From Candidatus Altiarchaeota archaeon (GTDB taxonomy: Archaea; Altiarchaeota; Altiarchaeia; IMC4; SCGC-AAA252-I15): DNA of 64,000 nt. Below the pieces are notes generated by a model. That model had not been told where the DNA came from. It worked only from the letters and a program-made list of their open reading frames with translations, and made no database searches. This document shows, piece after piece, positions 26,245 through 63,920 of this stretch (positions within the stretch are counted from its first letter, which is position 1; each line of letters starts with the position of its first letter). Position numbers and translations under genes: made by a program. The stretch lies in NCBI GenBank assembly GCA_043800705.1, contig JAZDMS010000001.1:57826-121825 (forward strand), given 5' to 3'.

Positions 26245-26281
26245 CCCTACTGACCCCTTCGAGAATATTACTTACAGGATA

Positions 26282-44413: not shown

Positions 44414-45790
44414 ATGCCAGAATACGGGACAATAATCGTAGGCGCGGGCCCGGCAGGCCTTTTCGCGGCCTATAAGCTGGCCGTAGCTGGCCGCAGCGTG
44501 CTTCTGATAGACGAAGGCAAGGACGTCGGCGACAGGCACTGCCCGCAGATCGAACATGGTCACTGCCTGAACTGCTCGCCCTGCTCTGTGATGTCCGGCG
44601 TCGGCGGAGCAGGACTGTGGTCGGACGGGATGCTGAACCTCAGACCGGACGTCGGAGGCGACCTGAAGGAGCAGACCGGCAGCGACGAGAAGGCATGGGC
44701 CCTCGTCAAGGAGGTCGACGACATATTCGTGCGGCACGGGGCGCCTTCGAAGACCTACGGCGGGGACGAGAAGAAGATCGAGGCGCTGAAGAGACGGTGC
44801 GCCTCCGACGACATAAAGTTCATAGACATAATCCAGCGGCATATGGGGACCGATACGACCCCCGCGGTCATCGGTTCGATCGAGGCATTCCTCAGGTCCA
44901 AGGGGGTCGAATTCCTCCTTTGCACGCACGTCGACGACATAGTCGTTGAAAACGGCAGATGCGTCGGAGTCATGGCTGGTTCAAAGGAGGTCCGGGGGGA
45001 AAACGTGATATTGGCTCCCGGCAGGATCGGGGCGAAATGGGTGGACGCTCTTGTGAAAAGGCACGGAATCAAGGCTGGATTCGGGCCGATAGACGTAGGC
45101 GTCAGGGTCGAGGTGCCTTCGCTCATTATGGATTCAGTGATTGACGTCAACAGGGACCCCAAATTCCACATACGCACGAGCACGTACGACGACTTCGTGC
45201 GCACATTCTGCACGAACCACAACGGCTGGGTCGTGAAGGAGACATATGACGACGGCCTGATCGGCGTCAACGGCCACAGCAATACGAACGGGAAGTCGGG
45301 GAACACAAACTTCGCATTCCTCGTCCGGGTCGAGCTGACGGGGCCTGTCGAGGACTCGGTCGAATACGGGAAGGCTGTCGCGGACCTGGCGACTACCATC
45401 GGCGGGGGCAAGCCCACCATACAGAGGCTCGGCGACCTGAGGAAGGGCAGGCGTTCCGAGGAGCACAACATACTAAACAATCCGTTCCCGAACACTCTTA
45501 AGGACGTCACACCCGGTGACATATCGCTTGCGCTCCCCCACCGGATAGTCACCGACATCATTGAAGGGCTCGAGCGGCTCAATATAGTGATTCCGGGCGT
45601 CCATTCGGATTCCACATTCCTTTACGCGCCGGAGATAAAGTTCTACAGTATGAGGGTCTGGTACGGACGCGACCTGCAATCCAGCATCCCCGGATTATAT
45701 GTCGCAGGGGACGGTGTCGGGCTGAGCAGGGACATAGTCAACTCGGCAGCCACCGGCATCATGGCTGCAGAGGGAATACTCGGAAAATGA
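44414..45790 (+). CDS. FAD-dependent oxidoreductase (COG2509-like)
   Basis: GAGPAG, C..C.PC, GVGGAGLWSDG, VRTFC, NGHS, APEIKFYS, AGDG.G.SR. Confidence 0.9.
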   Translation: MPEYGTIIVGAGPAGLFAAYKLAVAGRSVLLIDEGKDVGDRHCPQIEHGHCLNCSPCSVMSGVGGAGLWSDGMLNLRPDVGGDLKEQTGSDEKAWALVKEVDDIFVRHGAPSKTYGGDEKKIEALKRRCASDDIKFIDIIQRHMGTDTTPAVIGSIEAFLRSKGVEFLLCTHVDDIVVENGRCVGVMAGSKEVRGENVILAPGRIGAKWVDALVKRHGIKAGFGPIDVGVRVEVPSLIMDSVIDVNRDPKFHIRTSTYDDFVRTFCTNHNGWVVKETYDDGLIGVNGHSNTNGKSGNTNFAFLVRVELTGPVEDSVEYGKAVADLATTIGGGKPTIQRLGDLRKGRRSEEHNILNNPFPNTLKDVTPGDISLALPHRIVTDIIEGLERLNIVIPGVHSDSTFLYAPEIKFYSMRVWYGRDLQSSIPGLYVAGDGVGLSRDIVNSAATGIMAAEGILGK

Positions 45791-46296
45791 TTACGGTATT
45801 GCGCCTCGGCCACCGGTTCAGCCGCGACGCGAGGATTAGCACGCATCTGGCCCTCACCGCCAGGGCATTCGGTGCGGACAGGATCGTCTACGACGCGAAG
45901 GCATCCGGCGTAAAGGAGAGCGTGGATGCGATAACATCATCATTTGGCGGCGATTTCTCCGTTGAGTTCACCTCCGGCTGGAGGCGGTTCATCGGCGGCT
46001 TCGACGGGACCAAGGTTCATTTGACGATGTATGGGATGCCGTTGCCTGATGTCGTAGCCGATATCCGGCCTGCCAAAGAGGTCCTACTGGTCGTGGGAGG
46101 GGCGAAAGTGCCGTCCGATGTGTACGGGATGGTCGACTATAACGTGGCAGTCGGGGGCCAGCCGCATTCGGAGGTCGCGGCATTGGCAGTATTCCTCGAC
46201 AGGTTCCTTGACGGGTCGGGGTTGAGGAAGGAATTCAACGGAAGAAAACGTATCGTTCCGCAGTTGCGGGGCAAGAAAGTGATAGCGTCGGATTGA
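45787..46296 (+). CDS. trm56: tRNA (cytidine-56-2'-O)-methyltransferase aTrm56
   Basis: LRLGHR..RD.RISTH..LTARAFGA, HLTMYG, QPHSEVAALAVFLD. Confidence 0.96.
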   Translation: MITVLRLGHRFSRDARISTHLALTARAFGADRIVYDAKASGVKESVDAITSSFGGDFSVEFTSGWRRFIGGFDGTKVHLTMYGMPLPDVVADIRPAKEVLLVVGGAKVPSDVYGMVDYNVAVGGQPHSEVAALAVFLDRFLDGSGLRKEFNGRKRIVPQLRGKKVIASD

Positions 46297-46300: not shown

Positions 46301-49300
46301 TTACTGCATCGGCGTCTCGTCCTTGTCTTCTAGCATCTCCTCCATGTGCTTTCCTGCGGACTTGTGCCTCCTGTGGGGGGTATAGGATGATGAAACCATG
46401 GCGCTCATGAGGTCCTGCCATTTATCGGTGTCCTTGGCTTTGTCAGCCTCCATCGCGGGTTCTGGTTCTTTGAAGCCTCCGCCTTGGCCGCCGGCCCCCG
46501 ACGCCCCCTCAAGGTTGTCGGATCCCATGCCTGGCAGCCATTGTTGTTTTAGTCCCTTGTCTTCCTTTTTACCCGAGTCGGATGCTTCGGCGGGGGTTTC
46601 TCCTGCTGCGCTTGCAGGACTGCCTGTTTTTACGTCTGGGGCGGCTGAGCCTGTCGTTCCCTCGGCAGCCGATGCGTTTGCGGGAGATTCTTCGGCTTTT
46701 TTGCCGTCTTCTTCCGGCTCCATCCCGGGTAACCACCTCTGCTTGTCTTTGTCAGGTGATTGGGCGGGCTTTTTCGGTTCCATCCCGGGAAGCCATCTCT
46801 GGCGGTCGCCTGCTCCCGTGGATTTAGGCATGCTCTCGGCTTCTGGCTTTGAGCTGCCTTCGGTTTCGGGACTGCCTCCGGCCTCAGTGCCCGCGGCCTT
46901 TTCCCCAGTCTTTTCTGGTTCCATTTCAGGGAAAAACTTCTGCCTATCTTTTCCCGCTTCAGTCCCTGTCGCGCCCTCTTTATTAGCCATAGTCGACGTT
47001 CCCCTGTATGCTTCGTCGAATTCCCTGAATCCCCTGCCCAGCGCGCCGACCCTTCCCGGCGCATGGATTAGCGCACTTCCCGTCGCTACTACTGGGGCCA
47101 GGCCCCCGGTCATCAGCGTCTTGGCGCCCATAGCCGGAAGAGTTGCGAATGTGAACTTTGCCAGGGAAGTTCCCGCCCTGACCGCCATGTTGGCGGCTTT
47201 TCCTCCTATGAACCATCCAAGCTGCGCTCCCTGCAGCTGGTTCAATGCCTGCCCGGTAGCCTTGAATCCTGTCGTTGAGAAACCCTGCATAAAGGCTTTG
47301 CTGTTGGGGTTCTCCTTCATGAACTGCCCTAATCCCGCGCCGACTCCCGTACCCTGCATTAACTTCTTTCCAGCATAGAGCGCCATAGCCGCCGGAGCAA
47401 GGGCGGCGAACGGGGTGAGGCTGAGGCCCATGCCTATCCCAAGGGCGATTGCGCCGGTCGTCATCAGGCCCTTCAAGGATCCGCCGACGGTCAACCGCGA
47501 CAGGTGGGCAGACAGCCCCCTCGTGAATGCGTTCGCATCCTTCGACATGGTCCCTTTGCCTTCGAACAGCCTCTTATTCGCGATGCTAGGGATGGCATTC
47601 GCCGCCTTCCCGAGCGGAGACCCGATTCTCCTATGAGCGTATCCGAAGAGACCCCTCAGAGACATGTAATTCTTCTGGATACTGTCCGCTTTGGCGACTC
47701 CTCTCCCTATCATCCCCACGACTCCGCCCCCTTCCATGTACTTCCTGAAGGCGCCCTTCTCCTTCTGACCTGTGACCTGTGACTTTTTTGCCGCCTTCGA
47801 TTTGTTAGCTTCACCTAATGTCTTGGCAGCCCCCGCGAAGAGGTTATCGTCGGAGCTTTCAGCCTGGTCCGGGTCTCTGGCTAGCTTGCCCGCACCCTTG
47901 GCGAGGTTTCCTCCGAGTTTGCCTGCGCTCTTCAGCGACTTCTTCATGACAGTGCCGCTTGCCCCCTCCAGCTTTTCTCCGGCTTTGCCAACGAGCTTGC
48001 CGGCGCCGCTGGGCAGCTTCCCTGCAAGGGCTTGGAGTCCGCGGCCTGCAGCCCTCAACGGATTCAACGCTCCCGCCGCAAGCTTCAGACCCTTGGCGCT
48101 TTTGCCTGCCGCATTGGCCTTGTCAGCCATAGCGAACAGGGCCTTGCTCGGCGAACTGACGGCTTCCATGGCCTTTCCCACCTTGCCTACGGCAGCAGAG
48201 AGTCCTCTCCCGATGCCCCCTCCCGCCGCCTTCGCTCCTGAAGTGGCTGCAGTTGTAGACGCCTTGACCGCAGTTCCTGCGGCCCCCTCAAGGCCCTTTG
48301 TTGCCGTCTGGACTGCGTTGGGTAATCCTTTTACCAGGCTTTTGCCTGCTCCCTGGATTCCCTTCTTTGCGAGCCCCATCCCCATCTTCATCCCCACGTT
48401 GGCGATGGAACCAGCCGCCTTACTGACCATTTTTATGGCAGCCCCCAGAACCTTTCCTGTGGCCTTCGTTGCTTCGCCTGATGCCTGCAATGCGGTATTT
48501 GCAGACGTTCCGACTGCCAATGATGCACCTAACGTTGGGATAGCACCTAATTTTCCGGCTGCGTCCGTCGCCTGTCCCACTGCTTTCTGGCCTTCACCTG
48601 CTGCATCCATTCCCCCTTCGATCGTTGATCCTCCGGCTTTCCCTGCCGCCTCTATCCCCTTCCCCAGCGAACTTCCTCCTTTGGATTCGTCCCCCAATTT
48701 TACAAGTTGATCCTTAATATCGCCTTTGGATTCTTCTGCATTGGCGCCGCTCATGAAACCCCCCAGGTTCGGGGCGGGTCCGCCGCCTCCCGTTCCTGAC
48801 GCGCCGTCCATGCCTGGAACTCCTCCCTGGCCTCCGCTCGTGGCCTTGCTCAACGCGCCTGAGAATCTCTCGGCCCCTACCTTCAACCCAGCCATTACTA
48901 GGCCTTCTGCGGAATCGGATTGCATGATCTGGCCAATGGCGACCATTGAGGCGCCTTTTGCCCCCCCCGTCAACATCCCTATGCTTGTGAAAACGGCCCC
49001 CATGGTCTCGAGGGTGCCTGTTATGATGAGCGGCGAGATCACGATCATGGACATGAACACGATGGTGAAGGAAAGATTGCTGAGTACGTCCGACATCCCC
49101 TGGTTCATCAGGACTACTGCCACGATGATCCAGACAGACATGATCACGGGCACGAGCGCCCATGTTATGCTGTATTTCAGGAATTTCCTGCCCAGGCTCT
49201 TGCTGAAGTCGAAGAGGTACAGGAAGATGGTGAGCGGCATGAGGATTCCGAAAAAAATGACCAGCATCTCCCTGAGGAAAATTATCGTTACCGCAAGGAT

Positions 49301-49921
49301 AGAGACGACCATGGCGCAGCACAGGAGCAGCACATACTTCACTTCATTGGCCTCGGAAACGTAGGTGCCTACCCTCCCTGCCAGGTCATGGTCGCCGGGA
49401 ATGCTCATCAAAGTCCCAGCAGGGTCGATGAGCAGCTGCAACGTCATGGCGTGGTTGGCGTCTATTAGGAGCTGATAGAGGTGCGGAGACATCGGTATGA
49501 GTATGAGGCCGATAACCAGGTTGTGCAGCTGGTTCTTCGCAGATGAGCGCTCCTGGGCGCTGTGCGACACGAAGACCAGCTTGACTGCCGTGTAAAGTAT
49601 CGCGAACACCAGGAACGGCATGATGAGCTGCATGATGATCCCAGACATGGCCAGATACGGGCCGCTACTGACATCCGGCTGGTTGATACTCACGTTCGTC
49701 AGTATCGGTATCAGGACGGTGGTGAAATCGATTATCGTGTAGCCTGCGTAATCCATTATCAGCTTGATCGCGGTCGCTATCAGGGAAAGGGCGATGGCGA
49801 CGAATGTTATTCCTTCGTACGCTGCGGCCGCCATCTGTGGGCTGAAAACCGCTAGGGTCGCAATGGCTGCGGATAAATTCAGAAACACCCGAAATATCCG
49901 GCTCTTCATGGCGTCTTTCAT
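46301..49921 (-). CDS. VirB6/TrbL-like polytopic membrane protein with an about 870-aa Gly/Ala/Lys-rich and acidic tail
   Basis: N-terminal ~335 aa with many TMs; ER..AK..L..L..G..L...S..LYQ..ID and LR....F...MPL...LY.F pattern typical of VirB6-like proteins. Confidence 0.6.
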   Translation of the reverse strand: MKDAMKSRIFRVFLNLSAAIATLAVFSPQMAAAAYEGITFVAIALSLIATAIKLIMDYAGYTIIDFTTVLIPILTNVSINQPDVSSGPYLAMSGIIMQLIMPFLVFAILYTAVKLVFVSHSAQERSSAKNQLHNLVIGLILIPMSPHLYQLLIDANHAMTLQLLIDPAGTLMSIPGDHDLAGRVGTYVSEANEVKYVLLLCCAMVVSILAVTIIFLREMLVIFFGILMPLTIFLYLFDFSKSLGRKFLKYSITWALVPVIMSVWIIVAVVLMNQGMSDVLSNLSFTIVFMSMIVISPLIITGTLETMGAVFTSIGMLTGGAKGASMVAIGQIMQSDSAEGLVMAGLKVGAERFSGALSKATSGGQGGVPGMDGASGTGGGGPAPNLGGFMSGANAEESKGDIKDQLVKLGDESKGGSSLGKGIEAAGKAGGSTIEGGMDAAGEGQKAVGQATDAAGKLGAIPTLGASLAVGTSANTALQASGEATKATGKVLGAAIKMVSKAAGSIANVGMKMGMGLAKKGIQGAGKSLVKGLPNAVQTATKGLEGAAGTAVKASTTAATSGAKAAGGGIGRGLSAAVGKVGKAMEAVSSPSKALFAMADKANAAGKSAKGLKLAAGALNPLRAAGRGLQALAGKLPSGAGKLVGKAGEKLEGASGTVMKKSLKSAGKLGGNLAKGAGKLARDPDQAESSDDNLFAGAAKTLGEANKSKAAKKSQVTGQKEKGAFRKYMEGGGVVGMIGRGVAKADSIQKNYMSLRGLFGYAHRRIGSPLGKAANAIPSIANKRLFEGKGTMSKDANAFTRGLSAHLSRLTVGGSLKGLMTTGAIALGIGMGLSLTPFAALAPAAMALYAGKKLMQGTGVGAGLGQFMKENPNSKAFMQGFSTTGFKATGQALNQLQGAQLGWFIGGKAANMAVRAGTSLAKFTFATLPAMGAKTLMTGGLAPVVATGSALIHAPGRVGALGRGFREFDEAYRGTSTMANKEGATGTEAGKDRQKFFPEMEPEKTGEKAAGTEAGGSPETEGSSKPEAESMPKSTGAGDRQRWLPGMEPKKPAQSPDKDKQRWLPGMEPEEDGKKAEESPANASAAEGTTGSAAPDVKTGSPASAAGETPAEASDSGKKEDKGLKQQWLPGMGSDNLEGASGAGGQGGGFKEPEPAMEADKAKDTDKWQDLMSAMVSSSYTPHRRHKSAGKHMEEMLEDKDETPMQ

Positions 49922-50038
49922 TGATTAAGCCGTTTAATCATGGGGTTTTCCAGTATTATATACTACCTCTACCGTCCCCTGGAATAGTGGCCAAATCACA
50001 AGATTATCCGGTATAATCCAGTGTCGGGCTGGTCGGAT

Positions 50039-53000
50039 TCATTCCTTTCCTTGGAATTTCTTCCAGAATTCGTGGGGGTCAAGGCGCTCGAATAATTGGA
50101 AGCTCATGACCATGAGATACGCGATGATGAGGATCCACATGTTGTCTAGGAGCCAATCGCATGAATCCTCACCGAATTGGGGTGCGATGAACCCTATCCC
50201 CTGCCTGGACTGGTAGAAACCGGAGTCCTTGAGGCATCTCAGGCTCGCCTTTATGCCGTTCCCTGCTATCACCTGGATGTTTAGTATCTGGCCTGCGGAA
50301 TACCAGCCTGTATAGCTGGCATATGGCTGTTCGAATTCGACGTAGACTCCTTCCGTCGTCTTTCCGGCGACGACCTTTATCTGGCAGTCGGTCGTTTCGG
50401 GGCGGGTTGTGTCGCATAGGTCGGATTCCCTGATCTTCGCCTGTATGGTTTCGCCGTTGTTTGTGGAGCCCATATACTCCAGGGTGTACAGTTTCGGCTT
50501 CGGCTTTTCAATGAAGACGGAGAGGCCTCCCGCGCTCGGGTTGCTTATCTGGCTCACGCATGGACTTTGGTTCCCGAACGGGTTGAAGCTGACCTGTTGG
50601 AAGTGGCTGTACAGGGTCAGGTTGGTGGTATTCCACTCGTTGATGGTGGCGGACGGCTCGAAAATCAGCGTGAACGAATTGGGCTCGATCTCCTTCGGAT
50701 TGCATACTTTGACCGGCTGGTACATGCAGACTGCGTCGTCTGCCTTGAACATCACCTGGAATGTGTCCAGCCAGAGTGCATAATACCTGCCCCTCGAACA
50801 GAAGCTCTTGTATTTGCTCGGCGGCCCTTCGCATGAAATCTGTTCCGTCAGCTTCCATATGTTTGACTTGTTGCACATTGCAACGTCCTTTGGGAACAGG
50901 TCTGCGTACCCCTGCATGTATTCGCAGTCGCACATGCCTCCGTTGCAGACAGTATTGGCGATTGCAGAACACATGTCCGGACAGTTTCCGCAGTCGTTGA
51001 TGTCCTGCGCCGCCAACAGCCCCTCGTTGCATGCCGGAGCCTGCCTGACGTAAACATTCTGGAAGGGTTTCGACAACTCCGTCATCTGCGCGTTTCCGAG
51101 GGTGGCGGGATCATAGCCGTAGTATTTGATGTTCGCTTCTATGTTTTCGGGCTTGATATGCAGAGACTCGAAGTCGTAGTAAAGGGGCTCGTTTTCGGCG
51201 AAATTCCGCAACAACGGTATGCTCTCAGACCTCTCGTCGAAGTAGTTTCTGCAGATCTGGTTCGCAAGATCGGCCTGCACGATCGGCGCCCATAGATTGT
51301 ATCTCGTGCCCGAGGCTTGGTAAAGGTCCATGTATGATACATATTTCTTTGCCGGGTTCTGGAGCCACCTGATGTATATGGGCTGCTGCGAATAGAACTT
51401 GTCAAGGTCCGGGATTGACAGGATGCCGTTCTCGTTGTAGTAGCACATCCTGTGCATTCGCATCTGGTAGGTGTTCTCCCTCTGTAGAAGGATGTAGTCC
51501 AGGGGAAGCGTGGATTCAAGTGAATACAGCGTATGGAGCGTCGGATACTGTTTCGTTCGGACGTCCATTATGGAGACGTTCGGTATCATGAACGTCAGTC
51601 CGCTGAACATGTCTATCAGGGGGATGCTCGGGTTCCCCGAGGCCCTACGGATGCTCTCCTCGTCTGCCATCTTGACGGTGATGTATCCCATCGCATAGTC
51701 GTATGCTTCGGGGTCGCCGTATAGCATCCTTCCCCTGACCGTCGTCCTCGTCTCGGCGTTCCCCCTGGTGAGGGGGTTTTCGACGCGAAGATGGTTTCCG
51801 AATTCCTTGGCCTTTACAACCGATGTGTCGTTGATCTGCTCATACGCCTTCTCCTCGTCTCCCGAGTCTGCGTTCGGCTTGGTAAGCGGGTACCAATCCG
51901 TCTGGCCTTCGAAGTGCCAGCAGCCCCAACAGGAGTACATGCAGTCGCAGTCGTCGTAATATTGGTCATATCCGTTTGTGTCAGGTATCCCGTCTTGGCC
52001 TGGCAGGCCGGTTTCCGCATCGATGCAGTCGTCGTATGTGCAGCCTCCGCACTGGTACAGGTATCGTTTTCCCGTCCCCATCGGGCCGCATCCTTGTAAT
52101 ATGGGTCTCCAATCGGTTCTGAGGCAGCAGTTGGGCGGGCTTCCGGCATCATGGTCTGTAGTCTCAGTAGTCCATACGCCGCAGTGAAGCTGTTCCCTGG
52201 TCCTCTGGTAGTGGTATACCTCCTCCTCGAGCCTGCTGCAGCCGCGCCATGTGCATTGCTTTAGGTACATGGTCCTGATTATCTGGTTTTCGACGGTATA
52301 GTTCATTTCGACCTTTATGTATCTTGTTCCACCGCCTATGGCGAAGTCGAGGGTGTTCTCCTTCAATAGCGTGTACGGCCTCGGCGGCATCGACGTTATG
52401 TCGTTGTTTCTGTCGTCTCCCACCTTCTCATGGGGTGTGGTCTGGATAATCTGGTGGTTTTCATCGTATTCGTAGACTATGTAGTCGAACCAGCTTCTTG
52501 GAGAATCCTCGTAGTATCTGGGATAGTATCCGCCGACGTTCTCCACCTCCTTCCTCTGTATCCGACCGCACAGTTCGGGGACGAATTCGTCGGCCTCCAC
52601 GTAGTCGAAGTTGGGGTCTACGGGGGTAGAATTGGTTATTGCGTAGTAGTTGGGGGGGTTCGCACTAGCCCAGCCTCCACAGCTGTCGCCGTCTCCGTTG
52701 AATCCTCCATGGCCTGTTCCAACGCAGTTGCATTTGTGGTCTGTCTCGGGGTCTCCGATGCTGAATGGCGCCGGGTATTCGCCGCGTACGCAGCTCGTTT
52801 GATCCATGACATTGCATCCGGCTCCGTCGATTTTGATTCCGTCCGCCCTATCCTTTAATCCGTCCATGGCCCTGCCGCAGTTGCAGTTCTTCTCTGCGCA
52901 TTCTGATAAACCCCCGAAATCGTTTTTGAAAGGCCTGATTGTGGTGTCTCTGCCGTCGAATGGACCGTTGCAGGCCTGAACCCAATATGCTGGTTGGTAG

Positions 53001-53776
53001 TTGTCTCCGAGGTTCCTTGCCTCGAACCATATGGGGCTTGGAGGCGGCTTATACAGGATCGACAGCCTGCAGGCTCCGCAGTTGTTGTTGTCGCACCATC
53101 TGATCTCGTCGCCTTGTCCCATGTTCCTCTGGTCATAAGGCCAGATATTGTAGGGTATTTGCGGGTTATTGAATGCCGCAGCTTCGGGCCCGTTAGGTAT
53201 CATCTGTCCGCCTAGGGAGTGAAGTTTTACATCTCCGCTGCGCGTCCATGAGGCGTACCACGGGGCTGAATTGTTGTAGGCCATGCATTCCTTTCCTGTC
53301 CATATCTCCGTCCCTTCCTTGCAGCAGGCGGTCTCCCATTTTGATGTGCTGAAATAGCTCTGCGCGCAAGCGAGCCCGTTCTCGCATTCGTTGACGGGCT
53401 GGTCGTCCCGTGTCTCATTCCTGCACGGGCCTTCGGCGTGTCCGCACAGGTTGCCGGTCTCCCTTATCTTCTCCTCGCAGTATCCGACTTCTACGCAGCA
53501 GTCGTCGCCGCCCATGCCCATCGAGGCGTCGGTCGGCTCCATGGCCCTCCTATCCTGCATCTCGACTAATCTGACTGCTTCGTCTTCTGGCATGCAGCAC
53601 CTGTGTGTCAGATCGAATTCGTAGCCGACCGGGCAGCAGTGGTTCGGCAGGGGGTAATCGTCGCATACGGCCGAGACAAACAGCGGGATGATTACTAAGA
53701 GTGAAAAAGCCGCTAGCAACGGCTTCCCCCACGTGAACAATCCGTTTGCCCTATTTTGGTGTGCGTCTGTGACCAT
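50039..53776 (-). CDS. Large (1245 aa) Cys-rich exported protein with C-terminal TM
   Basis: Signal peptide; CCP.G and many Cys pairs; WILIIAYLMV TM. Confidence 0.75.
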   Translation of the reverse strand: MVTDAHQNRANGLFTWGKPLLAAFSLLVIIPLFVSAVCDDYPLPNHCCPVGYEFDLTHRCCMPEDEAVRLVEMQDRRAMEPTDASMGMGGDDCCVEVGYCEEKIRETGNLCGHAEGPCRNETRDDQPVNECENGLACAQSYFSTSKWETACCKEGTEIWTGKECMAYNNSAPWYASWTRSGDVKLHSLGGQMIPNGPEAAAFNNPQIPYNIWPYDQRNMGQGDEIRWCDNNNCGACRLSILYKPPPSPIWFEARNLGDNYQPAYWVQACNGPFDGRDTTIRPFKNDFGGLSECAEKNCNCGRAMDGLKDRADGIKIDGAGCNVMDQTSCVRGEYPAPFSIGDPETDHKCNCVGTGHGGFNGDGDSCGGWASANPPNYYAITNSTPVDPNFDYVEADEFVPELCGRIQRKEVENVGGYYPRYYEDSPRSWFDYIVYEYDENHQIIQTTPHEKVGDDRNNDITSMPPRPYTLLKENTLDFAIGGGTRYIKVEMNYTVENQIIRTMYLKQCTWRGCSRLEEEVYHYQRTREQLHCGVWTTETTDHDAGSPPNCCLRTDWRPILQGCGPMGTGKRYLYQCGGCTYDDCIDAETGLPGQDGIPDTNGYDQYYDDCDCMYSCWGCWHFEGQTDWYPLTKPNADSGDEEKAYEQINDTSVVKAKEFGNHLRVENPLTRGNAETRTTVRGRMLYGDPEAYDYAMGYITVKMADEESIRRASGNPSIPLIDMFSGLTFMIPNVSIMDVRTKQYPTLHTLYSLESTLPLDYILLQRENTYQMRMHRMCYYNENGILSIPDLDKFYSQQPIYIRWLQNPAKKYVSYMDLYQASGTRYNLWAPIVQADLANQICRNYFDERSESIPLLRNFAENEPLYYDFESLHIKPENIEANIKYYGYDPATLGNAQMTELSKPFQNVYVRQAPACNEGLLAAQDINDCGNCPDMCSAIANTVCNGGMCDCEYMQGYADLFPKDVAMCNKSNIWKLTEQISCEGPPSKYKSFCSRGRYYALWLDTFQVMFKADDAVCMYQPVKVCNPKEIEPNSFTLIFEPSATINEWNTTNLTLYSHFQQVSFNPFGNQSPCVSQISNPSAGGLSVFIEKPKPKLYTLEYMGSTNNGETIQAKIRESDLCDTTRPETTDCQIKVVAGKTTEGVYVEFEQPYASYTGWYSAGQILNIQVIAGNGIKASLRCLKDSGFYQSRQGIGFIAPQFGEDSCDWLLDNMWILIIAYLMVMSFQLFERLDPHEFWKKFQGKE

Positions 53777-53795
53777 TCGTTTACTCCTTCCTATT

Positions 53796-54686
53796 TTAAC
53801 CTACGGGTTTATTATCCGTTGTTTGTAATCTCCCGTTTATTGTGTTTTTTAGGGGTATTGTTCGCCCTATTAACCTGGACAGTATACTGCTTTCGTTTTT
53901 CGGGACGATTTCTCCGTTTTCGCTAAGATACAGCATGCATTCTTCGAATCCCTTCTTGATGCAATTCGCGCATTTTTCATAGAGCCAAGAGCCGCCCCAC
54001 TGGCTGTCTTTAAGGCGTGCACAATACTTCGGATCGCCGATGATGACTGCATAGCAGTAGCCATTCATCGATTTCTCTGTAATCTTCGCACAATCTGAGG
54101 ACTTTCTATTCCTGTCATTGAAAAAATAATTCAGCCTGCAGAGGCTGCTGGGGTATGATGGGCCCCCCTGTGGAAGCCTATCACATTGGGTGGGGTCTGC
54201 GCGTATAACGGCAACCTCTGAAGCGCATTTCACGTAATGAACTAATTCATCCTCATAATCTTTGAACAAATCGCAGGCTTTCGGGTCAACCTTGGCGGCG
54301 TAACTTGAGATGCAATATGCGCTATCCTCCTTGTTATCGATTTTCTCGCATATTTGGGTTTTACCTTCATCTATGGCCATTTTTGTCAGGCATTCGGCGG
54401 CTGATGAACCGCTCAAACCGGGGCAATATTCTAAAGCAGCGTCTATTGGTGCCGTCTTGTTTGAAATCGTGGGTTTTTCCAGTGTGCTTCCCCCCCCTTC
54501 GGATGTTGTCGTGCTTTCCAAAGGGGATGTTATATTGTGATCTATCAGATTTTCATTAGGCCTCGGCCTTTCAGTCACTGCATCAAAGAGGATGGCAAAT
54601 AACACCACAAGAAGTGCCAGGATAGTCCCGATTATCCACTTGTTCTTTAGGAATTCTTCCAGCGGTATCGTCTCACTCCCCGTCAT
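53796..54686 (-). CDS. Membrane-anchored protein with two-Cys helical repeats
   Basis: N-terminal TM, T-rich linker, C..I......C...A....D...C repeats. Confidence 0.7.
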   Translation of the reverse strand: MTGSETIPLEEFLKNKWIIGTILALLVVLFAILFDAVTERPRPNENLIDHNITSPLESTTTSEGGGSTLEKPTISNKTAPIDAALEYCPGLSGSSAAECLTKMAIDEGKTQICEKIDNKEDSAYCISSYAAKVDPKACDLFKDYEDELVHYVKCASEVAVIRADPTQCDRLPQGGPSYPSSLCRLNYFFNDRNRKSSDCAKITEKSMNGYCYAVIIGDPKYCARLKDSQWGGSWLYEKCANCIKKGFEECMLYLSENGEIVPKNESSILSRLIGRTIPLKNTINGRLQTTDNKPVG

Positions 54687-54746
54687 TTCCTTCTCCTTGA
54701 TACGTACTTTTATTTTCGATGTTTGTGAAAACCCTACCGTATGCCC

Positions 54747-57668
54747 CTATAATAGGCTGATTCCATCGCATGAGTCTGCGAATGTAAGGCCCCATTCGAC
54801 TACAGTGAAGCCCCTCCGTTCCGCCTTTGCAATATGGGGCTCAGGGATGTCCTCCGGAGCATCCAGCGGCGTGATGACAAGATTGACCCTAATGACGGTG
54901 TCCGGCTCGGGTTCGACCTCCAGTGCCACTATCCTGTCCAGCTGTTCCTGCCGGATCTGTGTTATCTTATAGTATCTGCCGGTGTTTAGCATCGGAACCC
55001 AGTATTCGGTGAAATCTCCGGTCTCCTTCCCGTTTAGTCCGAGCATCGGGAGGTATTTCCTGAACCAGTCACCGACGTCCTCTCTCCGCACGACCCATCC
55101 GGCTTCCTCCTGACCGAAGTCCAGGTCGGATTCCGCCTCGTAGAACAGGTAGTCGAATTCCCCGTCTATCCGTCCGCCGGGTTCGACGTTCACCCTCCAT
55201 CCATTTCCGTACGGCGGGTCGGAGACCACGATCCCACCCCCTTCGACGGAGAGCGTGACGTTGACCTGGGAGGATTCGCCGGGGTAAAGATAGATCGCCG
55301 GCTTGCCGTAGCAATAGCAGCCGTTGCACTCATTGTCGAGGCCGCCGCCCATCGAACCCATGGTGCAATATCCGTGATAGGCAGGCGGGACGGAGCAGCT
55401 TCCCGTGCACTGGCCGAACGTATCCTCCACGCACGGATCGGGGGCGGGCAGGCATGCGCACGGCCCCAGGTCCCTTTCCGTATACGCGCACGTGTAACCG
55501 GCCGGGCAGGTTCCTCCGCATTCGCCGCACAGGAAGCCCCAATTGGGCTCCTGGCATCTAAATGTGTACCTGCGGCCGCATGGTTGGGCATCGCAGGACT
55601 CCCCTAGCAGAGTCGTCGACGTCGTTGAAGTCGGTTGTGGGCAATTTGCGCTTCCCGTGGGGTTGGCGTCCGAGCAGTGCTGATTGAGGTCGTCTGCGAG
55701 GTTCAAGGGATATTTCAGGACTGCGCATTCCTCGTCCTGCACGCATCCCTTCTCAGCGATCCCGAACATGTAATTGCCGTCGGGTTTTGTACCGTAGAAG
55801 TTTTCAGGATACCATCCCGCGAGGTCCGTGTCGAATTCGTCCCATTTCGTGTCATCTGCCGGTACTCTTTTCTCCACCGGGCAATCCATAACAAGCTGGC
55901 TGCATTCGTGGCTGAGTTTGAACCTGCAGCATGATTCGGTGTTCGCGGCGTTCGCCCAATAGTACGTGCCTATCGGGCAGCAGTGTTTGTTCAGATCGGG
56001 TGTCGAAAGGAAACCTGTGCATGACATGCCCGAGATGCATTCGTCTTCGTTAGCGCAGGGTGCGCCGATTTCCTTGGTGCCTGGAAGACCCGTCTGGCAT
56101 TCGTATTTGCCTTTGCTGCCTGAGATGCATTGATCCGAGACGTCTGGGAGCCTGTCGTCGAAGGGCATGCCGACGAACGTCGTGTCGAGTTCGGGGGTGA
56201 TGCCCAGTATGAACGCGAATAGGCTGTGGACGTTCGGCTGCCTGTAGTACCTGAGGTCGTATGTGAAGCATTCATCTGGGCATACCGGGTGGTCTATGTT
56301 GTGGGCCAGGTCGTTGACGTCGTATATGAAGTCGAATCCCTTCTCGCATGATCTGCACGGGTCGTGCTGCCTTGAGATCGGGCGGTCATACTGGTCTCGC
56401 TGCGGATTGGCAAGGTCTATCGCCTCGATGCATGTGTTGGGGTCGTTTTTTGATTCGTTACTGCAATACCCGTACCTTGTTCCCAGGAATTCCGTGTCAG
56501 TGGCGTTTCTTATCCAGTAGCGGTCCCTTACGAAATCGTCGTCCACCCCTCCGAGGACGTGCGGCATGGTCCCCCAATATCTTCTGTTTGGGGCTGTAAA
56601 TGGCGGGATCGCCAATTCGACGTCGTCGTTCAGGTTAGCGCCTGACTGGTTGCTCCTCGGATAGTCGGTGTAGTTGAAGAATCCGGTCTTGTAGGCCGGC
56701 ATTTCGATCCGTGAGCCGCCAAAACCGCACCATCCCCCATCTAGGGCGTTTCCACCCAGGTCGGTTGGGTCGCACGCCCAACAGCAGAATGTGTCCGGGC
56801 TTCTTGGGTCCGATTGGCATCTGCCCCCTCCTCCAGCGCAATTATCCGTGGCTTGATCGAAGCTGTCGCACGTGTCGCAGCCTCCGTGCTCCCCGCCGGT
56901 GCAGGCATAGACGTCCTTGCTGTCAAGGTAGCATACGTTATCTCCCCAGAATTTGTAGCATATAACATCGGTTCCACCGGTATTGCATGTCGTGTTGTAG
57001 CAGTTCCCCAGGCTTGCGTTCGAGTTGTCGCATGGGCAGATCTCATGCCTCATCTGCTCGCATTTCGTCCACCTGCAGTTAAACGTGGTGTTGGAGTTGT
57101 TCTTGCATGGCATCAACCATGTCTGCCAGTTTATATCCCCCCCCAGGGGGGATCTATGGTCTATTTGCAGCCAATGCGGCTTGCCCCTCCATCTGGCCTC
57201 CTTGATGAAGTAGGCGGTTATGTTGGTCTGGATGGATTCGATAGAGTCGTTGATCAGCGACCAGTCGGGCCTTCCGCTCTCCATGTCTATCTTCGTGTCC
57301 CAGACGCTGTCGTTCCTTCGAAACAGGGGGTTGAGCCTGGCCTTTTCGTCGTCGATGTCCAGATATCCGTAATAGTCTGCCTTCTTGCCCGTGTAGCCGC
57401 AGGATATGTTATAGGCCGATGCGATGGCCGCTCCAAGGCTGCATGCTATGTCTCCCATCTCGCATTCGGCGCATCCCCAAATCCTTTGCGTCGCGCCGGC
57501 GTTCCACCAGTTGAGCTGGTCCATGTAGACCTTTTTTTCCAGCAATGCGATGTTCCTTCCGTTCGCATAGGTGACAAAGAGGAATAAGAGGGAAAATGCA
57601 AGCACAAGCATTTTCGCGATCCTCAGCCCTTGGCGTGCATTGATGCAGTTCGTCGTCTTGGATTCCAT
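54747..57668 (-). CDS. Cys-rich exported protein with C-terminal KPxIYLYP...VVEWG domain
   Basis: Signal peptide; Cys-rich core; KPAIYLYP, YLFYE, DFTEYW.P, RRGFTVVEWG. Confidence 0.75.
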   Translation of the reverse strand: MESKTTNCINARQGLRIAKMLVLAFSLLFLFVTYANGRNIALLEKKVYMDQLNWWNAGATQRIWGCAECEMGDIACSLGAAIASAYNISCGYTGKKADYYGYLDIDDEKARLNPLFRRNDSVWDTKIDMESGRPDWSLINDSIESIQTNITAYFIKEARWRGKPHWLQIDHRSPLGGDINWQTWLMPCKNNSNTTFNCRWTKCEQMRHEICPCDNSNASLGNCYNTTCNTGGTDVICYKFWGDNVCYLDSKDVYACTGGEHGGCDTCDSFDQATDNCAGGGGRCQSDPRSPDTFCCWACDPTDLGGNALDGGWCGFGGSRIEMPAYKTGFFNYTDYPRSNQSGANLNDDVELAIPPFTAPNRRYWGTMPHVLGGVDDDFVRDRYWIRNATDTEFLGTRYGYCSNESKNDPNTCIEAIDLANPQRDQYDRPISRQHDPCRSCEKGFDFIYDVNDLAHNIDHPVCPDECFTYDLRYYRQPNVHSLFAFILGITPELDTTFVGMPFDDRLPDVSDQCISGSKGKYECQTGLPGTKEIGAPCANEDECISGMSCTGFLSTPDLNKHCCPIGTYYWANAANTESCCRFKLSHECSQLVMDCPVEKRVPADDTKWDEFDTDLAGWYPENFYGTKPDGNYMFGIAEKGCVQDEECAVLKYPLNLADDLNQHCSDANPTGSANCPQPTSTTSTTLLGESCDAQPCGRRYTFRCQEPNWGFLCGECGGTCPAGYTCAYTERDLGPCACLPAPDPCVEDTFGQCTGSCSVPPAYHGYCTMGSMGGGLDNECNGCYCYGKPAIYLYPGESSQVNVTLSVEGGGIVVSDPPYGNGWRVNVEPGGRIDGEFDYLFYEAESDLDFGQEEAGWVVRREDVGDWFRKYLPMLGLNGKETGDFTEYWVPMLNTGRYYKITQIRQEQLDRIVALEVEPEPDTVIRVNLVITPLDAPEDIPEPHIAKAERRGFTVVEWGLTFADSCDGISLL

Positions 57669-57669
57669 T

Positions 57670-59310
57670 TCAAATCTGGCTATAAAAAATTTCCCCCCTG
57701 TTCGCCGAAAGCCTTGAAAACCTAGAGAGAGCTATGTAATCGTCAGGGTCATCGTAGAATTTTCCCCCGTCGATCACGAAATACTCGCATGGGACGAATC
57801 CTGCGGAACGCACCATTCTGGCATAGCCTGCATCGCTCGTCCACAGGCTGTCCTTCATCCCGAGGGTTCCTCTTTTGCAGTTTTCCGACACCTTTATCGT
57901 GCCGGCATAGTCTATCGACCTGATCATGACGTAGTCTATGTAAAATGGCGTCACGATCGGATTAATCATTATGCTCCTCGTGTCCTCCTGGTTCTTCATG
58001 GATTCAGTGTAGTTCCTGTCGTCCAATCCGATAATGGTGTATTCGTTGGTGGCCACGACATTGCCCATGAACAGACTTTCGCTCTCTCCGCCTGTTATCG
58101 GTTGAATGTTCATTATCGCTATGTTCCTCGACTGGTCGGGCTTCGCGGTGCCGATTCCGACTATGTCGTCGTCGCAGGGCCTGTCGTATTCTATGTGTGC
58201 GCCGCTGCCAGTGCCTACGATGCTTCCGCATGTCGTGTTGCCGTTGCTCCAGACCCTGAGGAACTTCATAAAGCAGTTGAGGGGCGACTTGTCCTCGTCG
58301 CCGTCCGGCTGGAGGGCGATGTATGGCCAGGTCTCCCCCCTCGGCATGTTATACATATACATTTCACTCATGCACGTCTTGTTCAAATCCTTACCGCTGC
58401 AGCTGAGGTTGATGTTCCCCTCCTGGTTGATCGTGACATCGGCGTACATCCATTGGCTAGTGGTGTCGTTGGACGGGCAGCTGTACGAAGGGGCCTGATA
58501 TGTGGGTTCGCCGTCGTCTCTTTCGAAAACAGTCACCATGCAGTCCTCGGTGTTGTGGAGGTTTGGCCTGCAGTCGTCCCCCCAGCTGTCCGTATACCAG
58601 AAGTTGCTGTCGTCGGGGATGCATGTCAAGGGATCCACATATTTCATCGTCCCTGTGGAGGGATCTATCTCCTCCATCTCGAAATACAGCCTAGGCCCCC
58701 CCTGGCTGTCTCCCCTGCAGACGGGGTTTTCTTGGTTTCCTCCGGCCCTTCCTATGGGAACTCCCGCGGTGACGTAAATCCCCTCGGGCGCCATGTCCTT
58801 TTCAAGGAGATGGCCATAATAGGCTATCCTCTCTCCGTTATATGAGCGTAAGGATAGCGCGCAGCCGAGGTAGTAATATTCGGGGTCGATACCTGATTCA
58901 TTGAATCTGTGGATCGTTCCGCTGAATGCCGCATAGATGATTTCGTCGTCTTCGGCAAATAGGTCCAGTCCGAGATGCCCCTCAAGGCAGGGAATTGTCG
59001 GAGAATCCCATTGGTTAACGTCACAGGTAGATTCGATCCTATCTTCTGCAAGATCCACGCCGGCTACGGGCCAGACAAATTTTCCGCCCCTTTTGCATAC
59101 ATTGCAGCAGTTGGTACAGTCCATCGAGAAAGGCACCGTCAAGTCAGCCCCGGAAAGGCATATGCCGGTCCAGGTCTGGTATTCATCGTATGATGTGCAA
59201 TTGCTCCAATCGCAGCATGGATGGCATACCGCCGCCTGTGCCGTGCCGGCTGCCGACAGAAAAAAAACCAATATTATTGGCGATTTAGACCTTACCAAAC
59301 ACCAATCCAT
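57670..59310 (-). CDS. Exported protein with an M23 (LytM) peptidase-like domain and degenerate active site
   Basis: WPV, HLGLDL (HxxxD) and YYGHL are present, but GPRLYFE replaces GPHLHFE. Confidence 0.75.
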   Translation of the reverse strand: MDWCLVRSKSPIILVFFLSAAGTAQAAVCHPCCDWSNCTSYDEYQTWTGICLSGADLTVPFSMDCTNCCNVCKRGGKFVWPVAGVDLAEDRIESTCDVNQWDSPTIPCLEGHLGLDLFAEDDEIIYAAFSGTIHRFNESGIDPEYYYLGCALSLRSYNGERIAYYGHLLEKDMAPEGIYVTAGVPIGRAGGNQENPVCRGDSQGGPRLYFEMEEIDPSTGTMKYVDPLTCIPDDSNFWYTDSWGDDCRPNLHNTEDCMVTVFERDDGEPTYQAPSYSCPSNDTTSQWMYADVTINQEGNINLSCSGKDLNKTCMSEMYMYNMPRGETWPYIALQPDGDEDKSPLNCFMKFLRVWSNGNTTCGSIVGTGSGAHIEYDRPCDDDIVGIGTAKPDQSRNIAIMNIQPITGGESESLFMGNVVATNEYTIIGLDDRNYTESMKNQEDTRSIMINPIVTPFYIDYVMIRSIDYAGTIKVSENCKRGTLGMKDSLWTSDAGYARMVRSAGFVPCEYFVIDGGKFYDDPDDYIALSRFSRLSANRGEIFYSQI

Positions 59311-59345
59311 TCTGCCTATGTATTTGCTTTATCTGTATATAACCG

Positions 59346-60419
59346 TCAGCCCAAGGTTCTGGCCAGACTTAGATGGGCTGCGGATTCCGACAGCGTATCA
59401 GCCGTGAGGTAGCCGATGAGCCTTCCTCCGGAGGCTACCAGGATGATCCTCCCGCTCAAGAGAACCTTCAGCGCGTCCCTGGCCTTGGTGTCCCCCTCCA
59501 TAACTATATAGTCTGTCGTACCAGATTCTCCGACCGTCGCAGAAGCGTTGATCCTTCTTCCGCCTCCCAGCTCCAAGACGCCCTTAAGCATCCCTCCGGA
59601 GTCGACGATGAAATATACGCTCTTTCCGCGGCGCAGAACGGTTGAAATGAACTCCTTCCAGCTCAGCGATCCGTTGACGTATGCTATCCTTTCATCCGCG
59701 ATCTGGGCCAGTGTCGCATCAGCCATGAGTTTCCTTAGGCTCACGTACCTGGCCTCGTTCCCCCCCGCATAATAGAGTAATCCTCCGATGAGCACATATA
59801 AGAGATTCAGCTCCAGCAGCCCGACGAAGGCCAAAGCCAAGAAAATCGCCTGTCCGATTGCCGTCGCAATCTTGGTCGCTTTTTCATAGTCAATCCATAG
59901 TGCGAGGACGCTGCGGAACACCCTGCCGCCGTCCATGGGGAATGCGGGCAGCATGTTGAATCCGCCCAGGGTAAGGTTGATATAGACCATCATAAGAAGG
60001 ACTCCGGCAAGGGAATCCGACTGGATCAGGTTGGATATGTTGTCCTGGGAAAGGTTATCCAAGCTCATAAACGCCGGATTTATGGCTAAAAGGAGGCCGA
60101 GACTGGCGAATGCGAGCATGAAGTTGAACAGCGGGCCGACGATCGATACCTCCAGCTCCAGGATCGGGTCCTCAGGCAGGTCGATGCTTGCCAAACCTCC
60201 TATCGGTGTGAGGATGATCATCGGGACTTTTATCCCGTGCATGACCGCCGTCATGGAGTGTATGAACTCGTGGGCGAGGACGATTGTGAACACCAGGAAC
60301 AGGAAAAGCAGCGTCTCTATTCCGCCGAAGACGAGCATCAATAGCGCGAAAAGTATGAACGTAATGTGTAGCTCGACAGAAATGCCTGCGACCTTGAACA
60401 GGCGGACAGCGCCCTTCAT
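59346..60419 (-). CDS. Site-2 protease (M50) with CBS domains
   Basis: HEFIH, GPLFN, FNMLPAFPMDGGR. Confidence 0.95.
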   Translation of the reverse strand: MKGAVRLFKVAGISVELHITFILFALLMLVFGGIETLLFLFLVFTIVLAHEFIHSMTAVMHGIKVPMIILTPIGGLASIDLPEDPILELEVSIVGPLFNFMLAFASLGLLLAINPAFMSLDNLSQDNISNLIQSDSLAGVLLMMVYINLTLGGFNMLPAFPMDGGRVFRSVLALWIDYEKATKIATAIGQAIFLALAFVGLLELNLLYVLIGGLLYYAGGNEARYVSLRKLMADATLAQIADERIAYVNGSLSWKEFISTVLRRGKSVYFIVDSGGMLKGVLELGGGRRINASATVGESGTTDYIVMEGDTKARDALKVLLSGRIILVASGGRLIGYLTADTLSESAAHLSLARTLG

Positions 60420-63771: not shown

Positions 63772-63846
63772 TGTTATTTATACCCCTCCTCCCTATAAAT
63801 CTAGACCTTTTATCGGAAACATCATACTCCGTCAAATCACACAAAT

Positions 63847-63920
63847 GGGCTCTTAGCTCAGTCCGGTAGAGCACTCGACCTTTAATCGAGGTGTCGCGGG
63901 TTCGAACCCCGTAGAGCCCG
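63847..63920 (+). tRNA. tRNA-Lys(UUU) with atypical C33
   Basis: GGGCTCT/AGAGCCC acceptor; GCTC/GAGC D stem; CTCGA-CCTTTAA-TCGAG anticodon arm; GCGGG-TTCGAAC-CCCGT T arm. Confidence 0.9.

Follow-up and report, generated by a model that had tools for sequence, protein, structure and literature searches.

A five-gene locus of a Candidatus Altiarchaeota archaeon encodes a VirB6-like membrane protein and, directly upstream of it, a giant Cys-rich surface protein that is divided here into four open reading frames (ORFs). The window, by which we mean the whole 64,000-nucleotide stretch of DNA that was analyzed, corresponds to C9:57826-121825 of a 2.0-Mb metagenome-assembled genome (MAG; genome G000, 43 contigs, completeness 87.55%, contamination 0.85%). 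We read the five genes as a vertically inherited satellite module of a type IV secretion system (T4SS)-like apparatus that is core equipment of one Altiarchaeota order, with the surface protein serving as a contact structure and the VirB4 motor encoded at a distance; we put the probability of this reading at roughly 0.55. Together, the VirB6-like gene and the giant probably add a cell-contact function to a secretion-like machine, the motor and pilins of which are encoded in other parts of the genome. ORF calls and translations place the five genes as follows.

57670-59310, minus strand: P0005, 546 amino acids, secreted Cys-rich protein
54747-57668, minus strand: P0004, 973 amino acids, secreted Cys-rich protein
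53796-54686, minus strand: P0003, 296 amino acids, N-terminally anchored, with Cys-pair repeats
50039-53776, minus strand: P0002, 1245 amino acids, Cys-rich surface protein with a signal peptide and a C-terminal membrane anchor
46301-49921, minus strand: P0001, 1206 amino acids, extended VirB6-like membrane protein

Followed from P0005 to P0001, the intergenic gaps measure 1, 60, 19 and 117 nucleotides. Coordinates and gaps agree with an earlier annotation (the sequence-only reading), which had described five co-directional minus-strand genes between trm56 and the gene for a site-2 protease (S2P, an M50/CBS protease). It had taken them for a domesticated T4SS-derived machine with a disulfide-rich recognition layer, used for DNA exchange or for attachment to other cells, possibly bacteria.

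The pairing of the two kinds of gene is conserved. We fetched 20 loci from 17 genomes of three families where homologues of the VirB6-like protein, P0002, P0004 or P0005 had matched, a sample that is therefore hit-selected. In every locus that holds a VirB6-like gene (17/17), the ORF immediately upstream of it is Cys-rich and runs in the same direction, and the pair has kept its place in all 17 genomes. P0002 homologues, present in 16/49 genomes of the order, always stand just upstream of the VirB6-like gene in the fetched loci, and homologues of P0004 occur in 20/49 genomes. Giant and VirB6-like genes are invariably neighbors, and both diverge rapidly: between the genomes compared, module proteins are 20-52% identical, as against, on the same contigs, 57-73% for trm56, 63-85% for the acetolactate synthase (ALS) small subunit and 33-55% for the M50 protease. 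Across the phylum, the VirB6-like family is found in 47/61 genomes, with 3-17 paralogues per genome, and VirB4 in 46/61, with 60-85% identity across the order. Both occur in families f1-f6, and both are found in 0/13 genomes of f7-f9.

Three elements make up P0001, namely a hairpin resembling pilins, a helical bundle resembling VirB6 and a long tail of low complexity; the positions in the window are as follows.

48887..49921, minus strand: membrane domain, residues 1-345 (AlphaFold2 model, Foldseek, VIA-align)
49466..49621, minus strand: VirB2-pilin-like helical hairpin, residues 101-152 (hhalign, borderline Pfam T4SS_pilin)
49028..49333, minus strand: TrbL/VirB6-like stretch, residues 197-298 (sub-threshold Pfam TrbL, PF04610)
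46304..48886, minus strand: low-complexity tail, residues 346-1206, about 860 amino acids, rich in G, A, K and S

The AlphaFold2 (AF2) model of residues 1-345, made from an alignment of 20 family members (A1), has a predicted local distance difference test score (pLDDT) of 81.7 and a predicted template modeling score (pTM) of 0.70. Among 350,542 PDB chains, its top Foldseek match is TrwI/VirB6 of the R388 T4SS (7o3v_J; E 0.057, probability 0.96, TM score 0.29-0.39). The three best VIA-align rows are likewise all TrwI/VirB6, with 215-229 residues aligned at a root-mean-square deviation of 5.9-6.0 Å, and they span model residues 65-308 and TrwI residues 3-272, which is nearly the whole chain. 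Their Z scores are 8.7, 8.3 and 8.0, and because values below about 13 may, for helical bundles, mean a shared arrangement only, we take the fold match as supportive and not as decisive.

Inside the membrane domain, residues 101-152 show clear homology to the VirB2-type pilins encoded in the same genome: when A1 is compared by hhalign with the eight small T4SS_pilin proteins of the genome (A5), the match reaches 95.2% with E 2.5e-8 over 52 columns. The Pfam T4SS_pilin model is borderline in this region, at 23.9 bits on P0001 itself (residues 95-146) and 23.9-30.1 bits over all searches, against a cut-off of 26.6. In the part of Beltran et al. on which we draw, an N-terminal region related to the pilin is described for both CedA/CedA1 and VirB6/VirB2 (PMC9905601), and the hhalign match to the genome's pilins gives P0001 the same feature. 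The TrbL match of P0001 is the sole TrbL match in the genome, and TrbL is reached at E <= 0.05 by 5 of the 20 VirB6-like family members, the best at 2.1e-5. VirB2 of Agrobacterium tumefaciens had no match to A1 by hhalign, and the A1 profile yielded three chance rows only (E 2.9) among PDB sequences. Homologous proteins of residues 1-345 number only six, at 663-2111 amino acids (the length range searched), and the two that carry a name are each called 'hypothetical protein'.

The tail of P0001, predicted to be cytoplasmic by the positive-inside rule, ends in a basic patch followed by G..LE.ML.D.DE, a motif that, judged by eye, is common to most orthologues. The whole protein contains only 2 Cys. 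Residues 996-1133 (window 46301-46750) hold four QRWLPGMEP-like repeats with the motif (K/R)Q(R/K/Q)(W/F)(L/F)P(G/E)M(E/G). At least two copies of this motif occur in no other ORF of the genome, and none was found in any ORF of more than 400 amino acids in the relatives' fetched loci; we considered the repeats as a family-wide docking motif and rejected this, as they are absent from every paralogue and orthologue checked.

The remaining parts of a T4SS-like machine are encoded on other contigs, beginning with the motor.

C15:55188-57461: VirB4, 757 amino acids (Pfam, NCBIfam and PDB matches)

This VirB4 scores 89 bits with Pfam P-loop_TraG, lies above the cut-offs of AAA_10 and DUF87 as well, and matches the PDB VirB4 4ag5 at E 4.8e-32. 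On the NCBIfam model conju_CD1110 it reaches 285 bits (E 1.2e-84), just below the equivalog cut-off of 325, and on the CedB model (NF041017) only 54.6 bits against a cut-off of 700. Adjoining it is a 375-aa PrgI/VirB3-like protein (PrgI 32.5-35.3 bits, cut-off 27) that also matches the N-terminal part of VirB4 and TrsD. This VirB3-like protein stands beside VirB4 in 8/8 relatives' loci examined, at 54-74% identity. Two VirB6-like paralogues and two small pilin genes complete the cluster, whose core order is extended VirB6, a protein of about 160 amino acids, VirB6, a protein of about 400 amino acids, VirB3-like, VirB4 and pilins. An upstream block, consisting of a VirB6-like gene of about 640-915 amino acids preceded by a protein of 1.5-2k amino acids, is kept in 6 of the 8 relatives' loci; the exceptions are L048, with its VirB6-like genes arrayed downstream on the opposite strand, and L053, without a VirB6-like match there.

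Eight small pilin genes lie above the Pfam cut-off in this genome, two of them beside VirB4 and six in tandem on contig C35. The C35 array (L055:2067-4311; G000:C35:102067-104311) comprises six divergent VirB2-like genes of 110-127 amino acids, each ending in a Cys-Pro motif, and lies directly beside a gene for a 1008-aa AglB/STT3 oligosaccharyl transferase; across all eight aligned pilins, identity to the first is 23-42%. A second VirB4-like ATPase, on contig C14 (L005:8426-11740; G000:C14:54426-57740), has 1104 amino acids, a hydrophobic VirB3-like N-terminus and 34% identity to the core VirB4. It is surrounded by housekeeping genes, and its matches lie in frames of 1099-1142 amino acids in three same-genus genomes and of 880 amino acids in the fourth.

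No coupling protein was found with PF02534 in the genome, where only two P-loop matches of about 20 bits appeared, and no search was aimed at relaxases; the two components together characterize a conjugative system. We examined both matches as candidates for VirD4 and ruled them out, since each is a HerA helicase with DUF87 and HerA_C. The extended VirB6 of the core cluster is represented here by a 445-aa VirB6-like ORF overlapping a 2025-aa ORF (L003:11274-18612; G000:C15:63274-70612); relatives such as L035 and L043 have one undivided protein of about 1.7k amino acids, with the VirB6-like domain at its N-terminus, and the pair may result from splitting, from a frameshift or from an error of assembly. 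On contig C42 (L004:8629-12359; G000:C42:37629-41359), the gene of a 693-aa protein with 30 Cys is followed directly by a weak VirB6-like/pilin-like ORF (T4SS_pilin 22 bits), and this may be a second instance of the arrangement of a Cys-rich protein followed by a VirB6-like one.

The partner of the VirB6-like protein in the five-gene module is a single giant in origin: fission of a Cys-rich type I membrane protein of giant size has given rise to P0005, P0004, P0003 and P0002. The Cys-rich part is one ORF of 1886-2650 amino acids with 85-204 Cys in eight genomes, and in one further genome a 2926-aa ORF followed by a 197-aa ORF takes its place. In the window and its nearest relatives the giant is split into two to four ORFs with differing break points, and one same-genus relative (L028) has no P0002 part between its P0004-like and VirB6-like genes. 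Fused giants carry an N-terminal signal and one C-terminal membrane helix, with a single extra internal hydrophobic segment in one form. Splitting has mostly been accompanied by a new N-terminal hydrophobic segment on each piece; of the 14 split pieces listed for relatives, 2 have none above threshold, and all four window pieces have a signal or anchor of their own (signal-like segments at residues 11-30 of P0005 and 13-36 of P0004; hydrophobic segments at residues 12-41 of P0003 and at 12-41 and 1208-1226 of P0002). The window pieces contain 25 (P0005), 61 (P0004), 14 (P0003) and 60 (P0002) Cys, or 4.6-6.3% of residues, and Pfam has no match for P0002, P0003 or P0004.

Two parts of the giant can be delimited.

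50042..50578, minus strand: P0002 C-terminal module, residues 1067-1245, a small domain, a membrane helix and a conserved short tail
54765..55331, minus strand: P0004 C-terminal domain, residues 780-968 (structure search and stand-alone homologue)

The P0002 module is the best-conserved part of the giant, its helix and tail surpassing the ectodomain in conservation, with the motif MSYRFF..R.MDF.DMWDEF.GKK in an alignment of 16 sequences (A3). In four relatives (L011, L015, L016 and L023) this module is a separate ORF of 148-197 amino acids. An AF2 model of the conserved P0002 core, residues 590-909 (A4), is of low confidence (pLDDT 50.0, pTM 0.32). The P0004 C-terminal domain also occurs as a stand-alone gene (e.g. 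G000:C13:5972-7078, 44% identity) and is missing from the fused giant of L010. In an Atlas structure search it matches, at TM 0.83-0.86, an unnamed bacterial domain fused to SH3_3, PKD or Cu_amine_oxidN1. Counterparts of P0003 are present in only 2 of the 17 fetched genomes (L015 and L016), with weak paralogues on contigs C1 and C6.

The divided state of the giant could also be read as decay, with the four Cys-rich ORFs being remnants of one gene broken by frameshifts or assembly errors and without function. Such an origin would suit a gene that is a single ORF in 8 relatives and differently split among close ones, in a sequence that comes from a MAG. It is at odds with the ATG start and the own signal or anchor of every window piece, which most independently split relatives show too, and with break points that coincide with gains of domains, namely P0003 and the P0004 C-terminal domain. 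Moreover, no stop codons were reported inside the window matches in the homology searches with P0002, P0004 and P0005. We therefore regard decay as very improbable and, given that an N-terminal hydrophobic segment is present on most split pieces, interpret the splitting as functional fission.

The N-terminal piece of the giant contains a peptidase-like domain.

58669..58980, minus strand: degenerate M23 (LytM-type) domain, P0005 residues 111-214 (Pfam Peptidase_M23, PF01551, 33.9 bits, cut-off 28.7)

A single-sequence phmmer search of P0005 against the PDB gave no match; a profile of six P0005 orthologues matches 27 PDB M23 sequences, the best being zoocin A at E 1.4e-10. HxxxD and HxH are the catalytic and zinc-binding motifs of M23. 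In the six aligned sequences HxxxD is retained in 5/6 and the His of YxHL in 6/6, whereas HxH has become R-L-Y in 5/6 and R-L-H in 1/6 (Arg 6/6, Tyr 5/6). The family consensus GPRLYFE, GPRLYFEM in the window protein, aligns with GPHLHFE of zoocin A and APHLHFQ of lysostaphin. With HxH lost, the domain is a degenerate member of the fold and probably non-catalytic, not an active peptidase. It is a lineage-specific accessory, found by Pfam in the window and in 5/14 orthologous giants, all of them near relatives. Residues 61-240 of P0005 (window 58591-59130) include an insertion before the degenerate HxH with a conserved GG.Q....CRG(D/S)S, which reads RGD in 3/6 orthologues. Where the nearest relatives have M23, the giant of a family f5 genome (G008; L023:4015-12795) has Peptidase_C39_2 at residues 1085-1267 (E 1e-11).

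Exchangeable hydrolase domains might suggest that the Cys-rich proteins are substrates or weapons, that is, polymorphic hydrolase-bearing proteins sent by the T4SS-like machine into neighboring cells in an antagonistic interaction. The variation of the peptidase-type modules by lineage, with M23 in the nearest relatives and Peptidase_C39_2 in L023, speaks for this idea, as does the fast divergence of the sequences. Yet M23 is without HxH in all six sequences, the Sec-type signal and the conserved C-terminal membrane anchor give the topology of a resident protein, unlike that of a T4SS substrate, and the module has no conserved immunity-like gene in the fetched loci. An antagonistic role consequently seems improbable to us.

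The genomic site of the module is formed by housekeeping genes identified with Pfam and NCBIfam, among them also the gene of a flavin adenine dinucleotide (FAD) protein.

45787-46296, plus strand: Trm56
59346-60419, minus strand: M50+CBS protease (site-2-type)
60426-60920, minus strand: acetolactate synthase small subunit
61563-62351, plus strand: aIF2-alpha

The M50 gene is next upstream of the Cys-rich part in all 14 loci that reach that far (14/14), and trm56 lies adjacent or at most four small ORFs downstream in 9/11 loci with enough flank. The arrangement does not extend to the whole order: trm56 and the M50 gene lie apart in 5/5 examined genomes of f4 and f6, and homologues of P0002 and P0005 are found in 0/22 genomes of f6. 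P0005 homologues, found in 23/49 genomes of the order, are distributed as 19/20 in f1, 1/1 in f2, 2/2 in f5 and 0/22 in f6. On these grounds, we assign the module to a branch with f1, f2 and f5 and reject the trm56-S2P arrangement as an order-wide one. The guanine-plus-cytosine (GC) content is 0.53-0.58 along the locus and 0.53-0.58 over all 43 contigs. In view of this host-like composition, the housekeeping flanks and a site that is fixed across three families, we reject a mobile element. The sequence-only reading had likewise noted a host-like GC content and proposed a chromosomal machine, and the test of gene-neighborhood conservation that it set comes out in its favor, the genes being co-conserved in order and position. 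We take the five-gene module to be vertically inherited.

In a quick tree of 47 VirB6-like domains, 17/18 rows from the same site fall in one weakly supported group, with a Shimodaira-Hasegawa-like approximate likelihood ratio test (SH-aLRT) value of 81. The group is not a clean clade, since a long-branch paralogue from G000 is included and the row of family f5 falls just outside. Clustering as tight was reached in 0/500 label shuffles, and a single origin of the same-site VirB6-like genes would be compatible with this tree. The group is separate from the two groups of core-cluster VirB6-like genes, and its inner order tracks taxonomy.

Two TATA-like boxes were recognized by eye at the locus.

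59336..59342, minus strand: TTATATA before P0005, about 25 nucleotides before the ATG and 3 nucleotides after the M50 stop codon
49954..49962, minus strand: TATATAATA before P0001, 32 nucleotides before the ATG

Both are candidate promoters, and the presence of such a box 25-32 nucleotides before the ATG of P0005 and of P0001 suggests two transcription units.

Several observations weigh against the interpretation of the locus as a satellite of a T4SS-like machine. The VirB6 assignment of P0001 is without significance at the level of sequence: Pfam TrbL scores 17.5-20.7 bits, under its cut-off of 25.9, and hhalign of A1 against A. tumefaciens VirB6 aligns 30 columns around a P..Y.FD.T motif at E 0.027 and a probability of 1.8%. 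Because the test against the TrbL profile failed, we call P0001 VirB6-like and do not file it under TrbL; the limit set on the VIA-align scores above applies here as well. There are no ATPase, pilin or VirB3 genes in or next to the five-gene module; homology and co-occurrence are what connect it with the machine, and in this 87.55%-complete MAG the VirB4 gene is on another contig than the module. Cys-richness is a trait of the organism and unspecific to the locus, since 62 ORFs of at least 250 amino acids reach at least 4% Cys, against a genome-wide ORF mean of 1.63%. P0003 and the P0004 C-terminal domain, with which the break points in the window coincide, are local additions, and the restriction of M23 to near relatives belongs with these points.

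The location of the module, in particular, invites a different account, in which the VirB6-like gene and the giant form an independent envelope-building unit. A VirB6-like paralogue would then have been co-opted as the membrane anchor or assembly platform of a giant structural surface protein, either envelope-spanning or part of a matrix or biofilm, with no role in transfer and no need for VirB4. The module indeed lies far from VirB4, pilins and VirB3 and at a fixed site among housekeeping genes, the relative G007, which is assembled as one contig, has VirB6-like arrays hundreds of kilobases from VirB4, and 3-17 VirB6-like copies per genome are seemingly beyond the need of a single machine. 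However, the phyletic pattern of the VirB6-like family equals that of VirB4, other VirB6-like paralogues sit inside the VirB4 cluster, the P0001 hairpin is homologous to pilins, and fast divergence suits recognition better than a purely structural role. We consider this main rival unlikely, and antagonism and pseudogene decay less likely than it.

The satellite-module reading, then, retains the T4SS-like parts foreseen in the sequence-only reading and changes their arrangement. The VirB6 resemblance of the membrane domain is supported, though not decisively, by TrwI/VirB6 as best structural match in both Foldseek and VIA-align. The search of the genome for VirB4 and pilins recovered two VirB4-like ATPases together with VirB3-like and VirB2-like genes, and the description of a pseudo-M23 was apt, HxH being lost in the aligned sequences and HxxxD mostly kept. 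Parts of a T4SS-like machine are present in the genome, but on our reading the five genes serve as a satellite of this order-wide apparatus, which is encoded at other sites, and do not form a self-contained system. Similarly, the separate Cys-rich genes are present as described, though they correspond to pieces of what in most relatives is one giant gene. M23 is an accessory confined to one lineage, and the genome has many other Cys-rich proteins. The proposed uses, DNA exchange and attachment to bacteria, are still matters of inference.

On the satellite-module reading, the apparatus would consist of a VirB4 of the monoderm/archaeal MPF_FATA type, the VirB3/VirB4-N protein, VirB2-like pilins and several VirB6-like paralogues. 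The giant, here a four-piece complex, may be displayed on the cell surface as a disulfide-stabilized structure for contact or recognition. Its conserved C-terminal membrane helix and short cytoplasmic tail could tether it to the VirB6-like platform, whose own tail would lie in the cytoplasm, and the platform might couple the binding of a target to a channel driven by the distal VirB4. An analogy for such coupling is the F plasmid, where TraG, an extended VirB6, and the Cys-rich adhesin TraN stabilize mating pairs. The degenerate M23 domain would bind a partner without cleaving it. The cargo could be DNA, as in Ced and Ted, or something else, as in Patescibacteria.

A more far-reaching scenario is possible, and we advance it tentatively, well short of the confidence given to the satellite module itself. 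Besides Ced and Ted, Archaea might have domesticated conjugation machinery a third time and independently, in one whole order of Altiarchaeota, where each member of an expanded set of VirB6-like platforms would dock its own giant and fast-evolving surface protein. As the cell-cell recognition head of the lineage, the trm56-S2P module would contact kin in biofilms, bacteria or DPANN epibionts and pass DNA or other cargo, with contact being signaled from the conserved cytoplasmic tail of the giant to the long tail of the VirB6-like protein.

Elsewhere in the window, positions 22000-36000 form a low-GC island (0.41-0.43 versus about 0.54) with genes for the modification of glycans and the cell surface. 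Encoded there are a B12-radical SAM enzyme, methyltransferases and a fusion of GT2 with a methyltransferase, along with a YfhO-like membrane protein of 969 amino acids and two surface proteins that resemble NPCBM_assoc/CARDB; the region has the look of a variable glycosylation island. A 578-aa ORF at window 18295-20031, with 41 Cys and no Pfam match, is one of the 62 Cys-rich ORFs of the genome. The single tRNA in the window is a tRNA-Lys at 63846-63923.

Domesticated conjugation-type machines in Archaea have so far been described only for Ced and Ted of the Crenarchaeota, according to the portion of the literature used here (PMC9905601). Full-text literature searches, which covered main texts, found no paper describing a T4SS in Altiarchaeota and only passing mentions of Altiarchaeales. 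The present analysis documents an order-wide, vertically inherited T4SS-like system in Altiarchaeota, which are subsurface biofilm formers and as yet uncultured. It newly describes a satellite module fixed between trm56 and S2P, the pairing of the VirB6-like gene with a giant Cys-rich partner, and the fission history of the giant gene. The module genetically pairs a VirB6-like platform gene with a giant, rapidly diverging, disulfide-rich surface protein, a combination previously undescribed, and P0001, the P0002 C-terminal module, VirB4 and the pilin array are targets for studying archaeal cell contact. The repeated fission of the giant gene, with most pieces gaining a new signal peptide, is also a clean natural example of gene fission in a secreted protein.

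For single components of the module, parallels exist in well-characterized bacterial systems. The degenerate LytM (dLytM) domains of EnvC and NlpD have the M23 fold, have lost catalytic or metal-binding residues and act in binding or regulation and not in cleavage, and PrgK, a hydrolase of Gram-positive T4SSs with a LytM domain, illustrates that an M23-type domain can belong to a T4SS. The P0005 domain differs from the former in having lost HxH only, HxxxD and the His of YxHL remaining, and from both in its archaeal host and its position at the N-terminus of a giant Cys-rich protein; to our knowledge, archaea have no murein of their own. The F plasmid combines TraG and TraN, the latter an outer-membrane protein, as a pair for mating-pair stabilization. 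The likeness to the Altiarchaeota module, an extended VirB6-like protein together with a large disulfide-rich surface protein that recognizes a partner cell, is a functional analogy only, and Pfam at E <= 0.1 found neither TraN nor TraG in the window proteins. TraG and TraN are moreover plasmid-borne, whereas the Altiarchaeota proteins are chromosomal and anchored by a membrane helix.

The rvh T4SS of Rickettsiales resembles the Altiarchaeota system in being chromosomal and in having several VirB6 paralogues per genome with very long C-terminal extensions. It is a P-type system of bacterial diderms with VirB8-11 and VirD4, and the portions of the two sources used here describe no paired Cys-rich surface protein (PMC2653234, PMC7648143). 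Closer in composition are the chromosomal T4SSs of Patescibacteria, also known as the Candidate Phyla Radiation (CPR), which have an MPF_FATA-related VirB4, PrgI/VirB3 and TrsD-like parts, VirB6 and divergent arrays of VirB2-like pilins (PF18895). They are lineage-wide, most clusters are without a relaxase, and they are thought to be co-opted beyond conjugation; their hosts are bacteria, and the portion of the source that we use reports no adhesins and mentions no giant Cys-rich partner of VirB6 (PMC12102498). In Altiarchaeota, the VirB6-like genes are expanded as well as the pilins.

The DNA import systems Ced of Sulfolobales and Ted of Thermoproteales are, like the Altiarchaeota system, archaeal, chromosomal and domesticated T4SS derivatives with a VirB4-like ATPase, VirB2-like pilins and a VirB6-like membrane protein whose N-terminal region is homologous to pilins, as set out in the part of PMC9905601 that we draw on. 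The same part knows of no relaxase or coupling protein in Ced or Ted; here PF02534 found no coupling protein, with no search aimed at relaxases. Altiarchaeota belong to a different phylum, and their VirB4 is nearer to the MPF_FATA CD1110 type than to CedB. In contrast to Ced and Ted, the VirB6-like genes of the putative Altiarchaeota system have been expanded to many long-tailed paralogues, one of which is paired with a giant Cys-rich surface protein far from the ATPase.

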